Positions 55,607-57,896 of a stretch of DNA of 64,000 nt are shown here, piece after piece. The DNA lies in the NCBI RefSeq assembly GCF_056746865.1, contig NZ_CM163382.1. One strand, 5' to 3'. The position numbers and the translations under genes were made by a program. Position 1 is the first letter of the stretch. Every line of letters starts with the position of its first letter. The notes below the pieces were generated by a model, which saw nothing but the letters and a program-made list of their open reading frames with translations, had not been told where the DNA came from and did no database searches.

Positions 55607-56380
55607 ATGTCAGTACCTCTCATTCTGACCATACTGGCGGGGGCAGCCACGTTTATTGGCGCGTTTCTCGGCGTTCTCGGGCAAAAACCCTCGAACCGCT
55701 TACTGGCGTTTTCGCTAGGATTTGCGGCGGGGATCATGTTGCTCATCTCATTAATGGAAATGCTTCCTGCCGCACTAGCAGCTGAAGGAATGTCGCCTGT
55801 GTTGGGTTATGGAATGTTTATCTTCGGTCTGCTTGGCTATTTTGGCCTGGACCGCATGTTGCCACATGCGCATCCGCAGGATTTAATGCAAAAATCGGTG
55901 CAGCCGTTGCCAAAATCGATCAAGCGCACAGCCATTCTGCTCACTCTCGGCATCAGTCTGCATAACTTCCCGGAAGGGATTGCCACCTTTGTCACTGCGA
56001 GCAGCAACCTGGAGCTGGGCTTTGGCATCGCACTGGCCGTTGCGTTACACAATATTCCTGAAGGTCTGGCGGTTGCAGGCCCGGTTTACGCGGCAACGGG
56101 GTCTAAACGCACCGCGATTCTGTGGGCGGGGATTTCTGGACTGGCAGAAATTCTTGGTGGTGTGCTGGCGTGGTTAATCCTCGGTAGCATGATTTCCCCG
56201 GTGGTCATGGCGGCAATCATGGCGGCGGTTGCAGGAATTATGGTGGCGCTCTCGGTTGATGAATTAATGCCGCTCGCCAAAGAGATTGACCCTAATAATA
56301 ACCCCAGCTATGGCGTACTATGTGGAATGTCAGTGATGGGATTCAGTTTAGTGCTGCTACAAACGGCGGGAATTGGTTAA
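55607..56380 (+). CDS. zupT: ZIP-family zinc (divalent metal) transporter
   Basis: 257 aa from ATG at 55607 ([10 protein letters not shown]...). Confidence 0.95.
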
Positions 56381-56437
56381 AAACAACATCAGAAGTTGTC
56401 CAGCGCATGGACAACTTCTGCCAGCTTCACGAAAGCC

Positions 56438-56608
56438 TTATTCTACCTTTTCGGCTGTCTCTTCTCTCGTACTGTTTAAGTATTTGTTCCGCGCTTCAAG
56501 CAGTGCGTCTCTGTCCTGGCGAAACGCCCGACAATAACGTTTCAAATGCAGGAAATAACCCACCACAACCAGAGCAATCAATACAATCCAGTACCAGGCG
56601 ATAAACAT
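56438..56608 (-). CDS. Candidate small single-pass membrane protein, 56 aa from ATG (track ORF starts at upstream TTG)
   Basis: N-terminal hydrophobic helix MFIAWYWIVLIALVVVGYFL then charged tail; aagggtaaaagg precedes ATG; AT-rich upstream region. Confidence 0.45.
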   Translation of the reverse strand: MFIAWYWIVLIALVVVGYFLHLKRYCRAFRQDRDALLEARNKYLNSTREETAEKVE

Positions 56609-56802
56609 CCTTTTACCCTTAATATTTAACAATACTAAACATTTAGCGCATAAATTTCACATATCCTTTTTCGGATATATTCATATGGTCGCATAATAAC
56701 GGAACAATTATATGATTTTGATCATAATGAAAAAGAATGCCTGATATTAATGAAATTTTCTCATAGAAAGAGAAGCGGAATTAACATCTTGCATAGCAGG
56801 GA

Positions 56803-56840
56803 AAAATAAAAACCGAAGCCTGCTACAACTTCGGTTTCTT
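56803..56840 (-). terminator. Rho-independent terminator downstream of ribB
   Basis: aaccgaagcctgctacaacttcggtt hairpin with flanking A/T runs. Confidence 0.65.
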
Positions 56841-56869
56841 GATTAAGGCAGTAAATTAAGCAGCGGTTT

Positions 56870-57523
56870 TCAGCTGGCTTTACGCTCATGTGCCTGACGA
56901 TAAGCCACCAGGTCTTCAATAGTCACGAGCGCCATATTGTGTTTATTGGCAAACTCAATGCACTCTGGTGCACGCGCCATCGTGCCATCGTCATTAGTCA
57001 GCTCACACAGCACACCAGCCGGTTTAAAGCCTGCCAGCGTCATCAGATCAATAGTCGCTTCAGTATGGCCGCCACGCGTCAGTACACCACCAGCCTGAGC
57101 GCGAAGTGGGAAAACGTGGCCCGGGCGATTCAGATCAGAAGGTTTTGCGTCATCGGCAATCGCTGCGCGAACGGTCGTAATACGGTCAGCGGCAGAAACA
57201 CCGGTAGTCACACCTTCAGCCGCTTCAATGGTCACGGTAAAACCGGTGCCATAGGCGCTGGTGTTATTTTCTACCATCATTGGCAGATCAAGTTGTTTAC
57301 GGCGATCTTCAGTAATGCACAGGCAAACAATACCGCTACCGTGGCGAATGGTCAGCGCCATCTGCTCAACGGTCATGGTTTCTGCCGGGAAGATCATATC
57401 GCCTTCGTTTTCACGGTCTTCATCATCAAGCACCATTACACCGCGTCCTTCACGCAGCGCAGCCAGTGCATTTTCAACACGTTCGAAAGGCGTACCAAAA
57501 GAGGAAAGTAGCGTCTGATTCAT
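56870..57523 (-). CDS. ribB: 3,4-dihydroxy-2-butanone 4-phosphate synthase
   Basis: 217 aa. Confidence 0.95.
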
Positions 57524-57599: not shown

Positions 57600-57770
57600 C
57601 GTGAGCGGGTCCATGCCCGACAGAATCGTTACTCTCTCCCATCCGGACTCTAACCGTCGGCCCCGGAATTACACCGGATCTGCTGTCCTTTGAGTTCGCA
57701 CCCAAAGCGCTCGCGGGCTTTCAACTGAGTTGATTTACCGCCGGTGGGGAATTTCGCCCCGCCCTGAGAA
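57600..57770 (-). promoter_or_regulatory. FMN riboswitch (RFN element) in the ribB leader
   Basis: Minus-strand leader contains conserved RFN segments gggcggggcgaaattccccaccggcgg ... ccgggg ... ggatgggagag upstream of ribB; boundaries approximate. Confidence 0.8.
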
Positions 57771-57896
57771 TAAGCGGATTCACTATAACGCTAATGATTA
57801 GCGCCAGCAACGCATAGCTTCACATAATTCTGGTTTATGACTTACCCTTATCGCACTACAATGGCACTCAACACCTATCAGTACAGGGAAACTACA

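Follow-up and report, generated by a model that had tools for sequence, protein, structure and literature searches.

Single-pass small proteins of the enterobacteria, among them AcrZ, MgrB, MgtS, KdpF, CydX and PmrR, modulate larger membrane proteins. YqiD is one of the many validated enterobacterial small membrane proteins that lack an assigned role. VanOrsdel et al. (2018, Proteomics 18:1700064; PMC6001520) were the first to describe it, and their Table 1 lists yqiD at 3183381-3183551, flanked by zupT and ribB and encoding 56 aa. The gene was a previously unidentified positive of a tetracycline ribosome-profiling screen; its product was detected by immunoblot after chromosomal SPA tagging, and accumulates from the native locus in ordinary LB (rich-medium) cultures (PMC6001520). 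A 2026 paper gives b4756 as the yqiD locus number. The name needs some care in searches, as “yqiD” in the literature mostly denotes the unrelated yqiD of Bacillus subtilis (an ispA homologue) or is a typographical error for YqjD.

The spacer that holds yqiD had also been described at the RNA level. Bilusic et al. (2014, RNA Biol 11:641; PMC4152368) found a zupT-ribB RNA of ~320 nt that co-immunoprecipitated with Hfq, detected it by Northern blot, observed a lower level in hfq and RNase III mutants, and termed it a bona fide sRNA while noting a 56-aa ORF inside it. Here we analyse this locus in a 64,000-nt stretch of DNA (the window; contig NZ_CM163382.1 of RefSeq assembly GCF_056746865.1), and compare it with its relatives across Escherichia, Citrobacter, Salmonella and more distant lineages.

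Identity of the open reading frame and evidence that it is coding

The minus strand of the window carries, at 56438-56608, an ATG-started ORF of 56 codons followed by a TAA stop, which translates to MFIAWYWIVLIALVVVGYFLHLKRYCRAFRQDRDALLEARNKYLNSTREETAEKVE. An earlier note on this DNA, made from the letters alone, had proposed exactly this frame as a small membrane-protein candidate, and its position and its length of 56 codons are as claimed; its description of the ORF as unassigned is wrong, because RefSeq annotates these same 171 nt in E. coli as “protein YqiD”. The MG1655 coding sequence WP_000469266.1 (“protein YqiD”) corresponds exactly to the 171 nt, with identical translations from MG1655 and the window; an exact-sequence look-up of MFIAWYWIVLIALVVVGYFLHLKRYCRAFRQDRDALLEARNKYLNSTREETAEKVE returned UniProt YQID_ECOLI (“Protein YqiD”); the translation given in Table 1 of PMC6001520 is the same again; and “yqiD: protein YqiD” is the annotation found under matches of the window spacer in a megablast search against 5426 complete E. 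coli genomes. The surrounding 490-nt region is 99.8% identical to MG1655. The neighbours are zupT on the plus strand, ending at 56380, and ribB on the minus strand at 57523-56870, so yqiD lies between zupT and ribB and is convergent with zupT, as both the annotated regions and tblastn synteny indicate. We conclude that the window ORF is almost certainly yqiD (b4756), a real and already known small-protein gene. There is no discovery here: yqiD has been named and annotated, and its translation demonstrated, since 2018.

ORF length alone is not significant, as 823 of 5000 shuffles (16%) of the 489-nt intergenic region contained an ATG-started ORF of at least 56 codons. What sets yqiD apart from a chance frame is its conservation. 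Our comparison set comprised 27 loci from a scan of one genome per species, spanning several species of Escherichia, many of Citrobacter, subspecies of Salmonella enterica, Intestinirhabdus alba and one Enterobacter sp. An ATG-started ORF of 56-60 aa is kept in the same frame at all 27 of these species-level loci, while none of the other five frames stays stop-free over the corresponding 165 nt in more than two of the 27. With the window sequence as reference and 44 colinear codons of the N-terminal part compared, the computable dN/dS ratios are 0.04-0.14; synonymous sites are saturated at eight loci, for which no ratio is computable, and dN is ~0.1 in most comparisons between genera. Third codon positions account for 38 of the 77 variable columns. 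This strong purifying selection on the amino-acid sequence indicates that the YqiD protein is itself functional.

Translation signals are conserved alongside the frame. A Shine-Dalgarno-like AAGGG (56616-56620, minus strand) stands 7 nt 5' of the ATG within the block TAAGGGTAAAAG, which precedes the ATG in all 27 loci and is kept across Escherichia, Citrobacter and Salmonella, bearing out the plausible ribosome-binding site of the earlier note. A TTG at 56632 (ATG in Citrobacter) would lengthen the ORF to 64 aa. We reject this N-terminal extension as non-coding because the A-run between the TTG and the ATG varies by 1 nt and so breaks the longer frame; such 1-nt indels occur in Escherichia lineages including E. 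albertii and E. whittamii, as well as at both Salmonella loci and one locus of C. amalonaticus.

The earlier note had also argued from composition that the ORF is a bona fide gene rather than a random frame, and purifying selection, frame conservation and published detection of the protein (PMC6001520) agree. Of the checks that it proposed, conservation analysis gave the intact frame and low dN/dS described above, while epitope tagging at the chromosomal locus and ribosome profiling had both been published in 2018 with positive outcomes, by SPA tag and by tetracycline profiling respectively (PMC6001520).

Predicted architecture of YqiD

YqiD begins with one strongly hydrophobic segment and continues as a charged tail, as the earlier note had described. 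In 19-residue windows the Kyte-Doolittle maximum is 2.43, at residues 2-20, well over the transmembrane threshold of 1.6 for that scale and window length, and the transmembrane-helix prediction suggested as a check is thereby positive. Charge is distributed asymmetrically: only the uncharged Met-Phe precedes the helix, and of the 15 residues that follow it five are K/R and two D/E.

Three parts can be distinguished. Codons 3-22 (56543-56602, minus strand) encode the predicted transmembrane helix IAWYWIVLIALVVVGYFLHL, supported by hydropathy, by the AlphaFold2 helix and by invariant residues. Codons 23-40 (56489-56542, minus strand) encode a conserved basic juxtamembrane motif, KRYCRAFRQDRDALLEAR, predicted to be cytoplasmic. 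The variable charged C-terminal tail, codons 41-56 with the stop (56438-56488, minus strand), differs in length and sequence between genera; the whole protein measures 56-60 aa among close relatives and reaches 74 aa in distant homologues. AlphaFold2, working from a shallow alignment, models residues 2-55 as one continuous helix, with a mean pLDDT of 73 and values of 83-86 over the first 20 residues.

Among close homologues M1, I3, W5, Y6, W7, Y18, H21, K23, R24, A28, R30, D32, R33, D34, A35 and L36 are invariant. Across the whole family, including homologues down to 30% identity, M1, A28 and R30 remain invariant, and I3, W5, R24, R33 and A35 are conserved in at least 90%. Read from sequence, the helix appears to be capped by aromatic residues, and the positive-inside rule predicts a cytoplasmic location for the basic juxtamembrane helix. 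We infer that YqiD is a single-pass inner-membrane protein, anchored by residues ~3-22 in an N-out/C-in orientation, with a two-residue periplasmic N-terminus and with the basic helix KRYCRAFRQDRDALLEAR and a variable acidic tail in the cytoplasm. The searchable literature yielded no localisation, topology, partner or phenotype experiments on YqiD.

Sequence searches gave no Pfam or NCBIfam model reaching its cut-off for YqiD, and no relative in the PDB. The best sub-threshold Pfam matches were DUF2621 (19.8 bits against a cut-off of 27.7) and DUF4381 (E = 0.0025); we set aside these and similarly weak matches to NF038143 and GapR/UPF0335, which look like composition effects of a transmembrane-plus-charged helix. 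By analogy with other enterobacterial single-pass small proteins, YqiD may be a modulator of a larger membrane protein. This is the reading we prefer, and one against which we weigh the evidence from the RNA and from the genomic neighbourhood below.

The upstream control region

The earlier note had remarked on an AT-rich upstream region, and the 199 nt upstream of yqiD (56609-56807) indeed have a GC content of 28.6%, against 50.8% for the window. Within this region lies a conserved promoter and 5' UTR block of ~122 nt (56609-56730, minus strand), recognised by identity across genera and by its sharp edge. Numbered from the ATG, identity to 21 non-Escherichia loci is 0.89 at -1 to -20, 0.73 at -21 to -62, 0.60 at -63 to -95 and 0.75 at -96 to -125; beyond -126 it is only 0.16-0.22.

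The upstream edge of the block is marked by a perfect 6+4+6 palindrome, TATGATCAAAATCATA, at 56711-56726 (minus strand), centred 110.5 nt from the ATG. It occurs once in the window, all 28 aligned sequences share its ATGATC and TCAT without change, and it is retained in the divergent E. coli allele described below. We consider it a candidate site for a dimeric transcription factor. It contains TGA-TCAAAA-TCA, which has the TGA-N6-TCA core of CRP/FNR-family sites. The base before TGA is G at CRP sites (GTGA) and T at FNR sites (TTGA). Here it is A in both half-sites (ATGA...TCAT) in 28 of 28 aligned sequences, so TATGATCAAAATCATA cannot be assigned as a canonical CRP or FNR box. The consensus sequences of Fur, Zur, ArgR, PhoP, ArcA and HipB were also compared informally with the palindrome and with a pair of TGTTTA/TGTTAA repeats nearer the gene, and rejected for misfits in spacing or sequence.

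Two candidate models place the transcription start. In the first, a -10 element (TATGAT or TATAAT) lies in or beside the palindrome, and transcription starts at ~56700-56714 to give an RNA of ~320-333 nt, a length that fits the published Northern size. In the second, the palindrome occupies the -35 position or that of a class II activator, with a -10 at ~56682-56687, a start at ~56675 and an RNA of ~295 nt; this model agrees with the sharp drop in conservation on the upstream side of the palindrome. A consensus promoter scan found only promoters of the first type, no more often than in shuffles. Published data also concern this promoter region. Shimada et al. (2017; PMC5493296) recorded a SELEX peak for RpoS holoenzyme between zupT and ribB, which was then assigned to a space flanked by convergent genes and had no gene to drive; after conversion of the older coordinate, the peak falls within ~70 nt upstream of the yqiD ATG. 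A 2025 preprint assayed the region upstream of yqiD in a set of 18 GFP reporter constructs and describes cis variants that alter yqiD expression, consistently over three methods (bioRxiv 10.1101/2025.06.10.658842).

Two smaller elements of the 5' UTR deserve mention. The ~60 nt next to the gene (56609-56670, minus strand; GGATATGTGAAATTT..GCTAAATGTTTAGTATTGTTAAATATTAAGGGTAAAAGG) show 73-89% identity between genera, in contrast to the saturated synonymous sites of the coding sequence, and contain the repeats TGTTTA and TGTTAA, 10 nt apart; this stretch could be a target of an sRNA or Hfq, or a protein-binding site. An inverted repeat, ATATCC-N6-GGATAT, at 56661-56678 (minus strand) has undergone compensatory changes in certain lineages (TACCTA/TAGGTA in the group of C. 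amalonaticus and C. sedlakii, ATACC/GGGTAT in Intestinirhabdus), and the C. freundii complex lacks it. The repeat could form an RNA hairpin in the 5' UTR or serve as a DNA operator.

The transcript and a possible function of the RNA

yqiD is an independently transcribed gene common to E. coli and its relatives. A terminator scan identified the ribB terminator hairpin at 56808-56839 (minus strand), which separates the ribB and yqiD transcription units, and an intrinsic terminator for yqiD itself at 56380-56420 (minus strand; hairpin 56420-56390), with a 13-bp stem, a 5-nt loop and the tail ATGTTGTTTT. The earlier note had given yqiD its own downstream space before the ribB terminator; this reverses the arrangement, because yqiD is read on the minus strand and has the ribB terminator (56839-56808) on its upstream side, whereas the hairpin that follows the gene is its own. 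The yqiD terminator adjoins the stop codon of zupT and is probably shared by the two convergent genes. Most other genera, as well as the divergent E. coli allele, have a hairpin of different sequence at the equivalent place.

With a 5' UTR of 67-106 nt, the 171-nt coding sequence and a further ~57 nt through the terminator tail, the expected monocistronic transcript is 295-333 nt, and the published size of ~320 nt fits it (PMC4152368). The folding of this transcript is stronger than that of shuffled versions (z = -3.6), and it matches no Rfam family. Nearby on the same strand, two Rfam matches fall at ribB. One is the FMN riboswitch (RF00050) of the ribB leader, at 57627-57775 (120.9 bits), expected at this locus; the other is a sub-threshold match to the Salmonella sRNA STnc240 at 56801-56871 (29.1 bits against a gathering threshold of 55, E = 0.08), which spans the ribB stop codon and terminator and may reflect an RNA derived from the ribB 3' UTR.

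These properties raise the question of whether the RNA acts in its own right, either as a dual-function molecule that is both an mRNA and an Hfq-dependent base-pairing regulator, comparable to SgrS/SgrT and AzuCR, or even as the main product of the locus. Its co-immunoprecipitation with Hfq, its destabilisation without Hfq and its designation as a bona fide sRNA (PMC4152368) all point this way, as do the stem-loop and U-rich tail ATGTTGTTTT at its 3' end, the folding in excess of shuffles, and a 5' UTR of which ~60 nt are conserved between genera far above the synonymous sites of the coding sequence. However, mRNAs targeted by sRNAs just as typically bind Hfq and depend on it for stability; no trans target has been reported, and Rfam offers no matching family; and the strong purifying selection on the amino acids shows that the protein is functional. 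We consider an RNA function of this kind unlikely, and favour a membrane-protein modulator translated from an Hfq-bound mRNA.

Distribution, alleles and genomic neighbourhood

A search more sensitive than megablast found yqiD in 5424 of the 5426 complete E. coli genomes, with a median of one place per genome. Two allele classes are apparent: a K-12-like allele (at least 95% identity) in 4431 genomes, and a divergent allele in 993, with ~82% nucleotide identity over its 5' half. The divergent allele also encodes 56 aa; its representative in the ST131-type E. coli SaT040, WP_001296421.1, is labelled only “hypothetical protein” in RefSeq. It keeps the transmembrane segment, the motif KRYC[RK]AFR[QH]DRDALL and the palindrome, and has a different terminator hairpin and a different tail. 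In the two strains with this allele in which we examined the sequence upstream of yqiD (SaT040, 3938-4108 of locus L030; and 2438-2608 of locus L002), yqiD is preceded not by ribB but by a fimbrial operon of fimbrial-like protein, usher and chaperone.

In one strain, E. coli AVS0968 (L031, 1748-2445), an IS1 element lies between zupT and a yqiD remnant, in the place expected for the 3' part of the gene; the match is limited to the 5' part, and the annotation contains no yqiD. The locus has the look of a natural knockout, and the IS1 disruption indicates that yqiD is dispensable at least in that background.

Across species the zupT side of the locus is constant and the ribB side often interrupted, and yqiD is convergent with zupT at a distance of 0-90 nt in all 27 species-level loci. 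Beyond these the family is sparse: a profile search of 1.8 billion representative proteins gave only 24 hits, including homologues at 30-48% identity. Four distant contigs carry the homologue in a context of ribB, yqiD, zupT and ygiD. Two further distant lineages, represented by metagenome contigs L038 and L033, have it beside a ygiC-like gene, a glutathionylspermidine-synthase homologue (on L038, between the ygiC-like gene and assT-dsbL-dsbI), with zupT and ygiD absent nearby. The 5' UTR of both contigs resembles that of E. coli (GTGTGAAAT...GAATGTA...TTAAGGAT). A Logan contig, SRR31245077_25353 (L040, 1499-1876), predicts a 125-aa protein in which the first ~70 residues of ZupT are fused in-frame to a YqiD-like C-terminal half; given that zupT and yqiD normally converge, the fusion reflects either a genuine rearrangement or a chimeric assembly.

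The constancy of zupT invites the idea that YqiD is a zinc-linked accessory of ZupT, acting as a regulatory subunit or as a metal-sensing partner that uses His21 and Cys26. Besides the convergent arrangement at all 27 loci and on the four distant contigs, and the repeated breakage of the ribB side by insertions, this idea draws on the invariance or near-invariance of His21 and Cys26 in close homologues, at the boundary of membrane and cytoplasm. Yet convergent genes are not co-transcribed, and simple retention of gene order in related genomes could explain why the two are neighbours; in two lineages the homologue has no zupT beside it, distant homologues have lost both His21 and Cys26, and reading of the upstream alignments revealed no Zur-like box. 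We regard a zinc-linked role with ZupT as quite improbable. A His2Cys2 zinc site formed by H21 and C26 across a dimer, which we also considered, is unlikely since both residues are lost in distant homologues.

A composite of these ideas can be drawn, in which a dual-function Hfq RNA with a pairing 5' UTR would encode a protein that tunes a transporter (ZupT, for example), under a dimeric regulator bound at ATGAT-N4-ATCAT. Taken jointly, this is again a rather improbable reading.

We give still less credence to YqiD as a type I toxin-like hydrophobic peptide whose translation is held low by RNA-level control. Such a peptide would be small, with one hydrophobic helix and a long conserved 5' UTR, and its gene could be dispensable, as yqiD is in at least one strain; the dependence of the transcript level on Hfq and RNase III (PMC4152368) would suit it too. 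Against this, LB cultures contain detectable YqiD expressed from its own chromosomal site (PMC6001520), and the plus strand between 56300 and 56950 shows no promoter-like or terminator-like site that could serve an antisense RNA. The gene is single-copy and syntenic across genera and distant contigs, unlike the patchy, multi-copy type I loci. Most type I toxins are short, and a protein of 56 aa with a long charged cytoplasmic helix is unlike them. We think a toxin role very unlikely. Finally, that the ORF is a chance frame in an intergenic spacer, as 16% of spacer shuffles might allow, is refuted by the frame kept at 27 of 27 loci, dN/dS of ~0.1, the conserved ribosome-binding site, and the published immunoblot and ribosome profiling.

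Discussion

We suggest, by analogy, that yqiD encodes a small membrane-protein modulator. Transcription starts within the AT-rich conserved block that follows the ribB terminator and produces a monocistronic RNA of ~300-320 nt, which binds Hfq and ends at the hairpin adjoining zupT. Initiation at the ATG behind the conserved AAGGG yields the 56-aa protein, which its N-terminal helix would carry into the inner membrane. There YqiD may bind a larger inner-membrane protein through its transmembrane helix together with the juxtamembrane motif A-x-R-x-[DE]-R-[DE]-A, and this binding may tune the activity or the stability of the partner. ZupT is a weak candidate for that partner, put forward by gene adjacency only.

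Several features of the locus provide handles for further study. The family signature combines a transmembrane start, M-F-I-A-W-Y-W, with the cytoplasmic motif A-x-R-x-[DE]-R-[DE]-A; the promoter and 5' UTR are conserved within sharp bounds and carry an invariant palindrome; two allele classes coexist within E. coli; and the adjacency to zupT is persistent, not obligatory.

Compared with described systems, the gene in the window does not differ from yqiD of E. coli K-12 in sequence, position or relative strand; it is the same gene in another strain. The ig-ribB-zupT RNA of Bilusic et al. comes from the same locus, contains the same 56-aa ORF and has a size compatible with the yqiD transcript; when it was presented as a candidate sRNA, translation had yet to be demonstrated. 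Homologues in Salmonella, Citrobacter, Shigella and E. coli with the divergent allele bear the label DUF4051 in NCBI and UniRef source annotations. None of 17 family members (the query and 16 homologues) hits DUF4051 in the copy of Pfam-A that we searched, and the label is uninformative on function. From the established small modulators YqiD differs in having no detected sequence similarity to any described family. In general design it is nevertheless like AcrZ, MgrB, MgtS, KdpF, CydX and PmrR: it falls into the same size class, has a single transmembrane helix and a short conserved juxtamembrane segment, and is encoded by a small transcription unit of its own.
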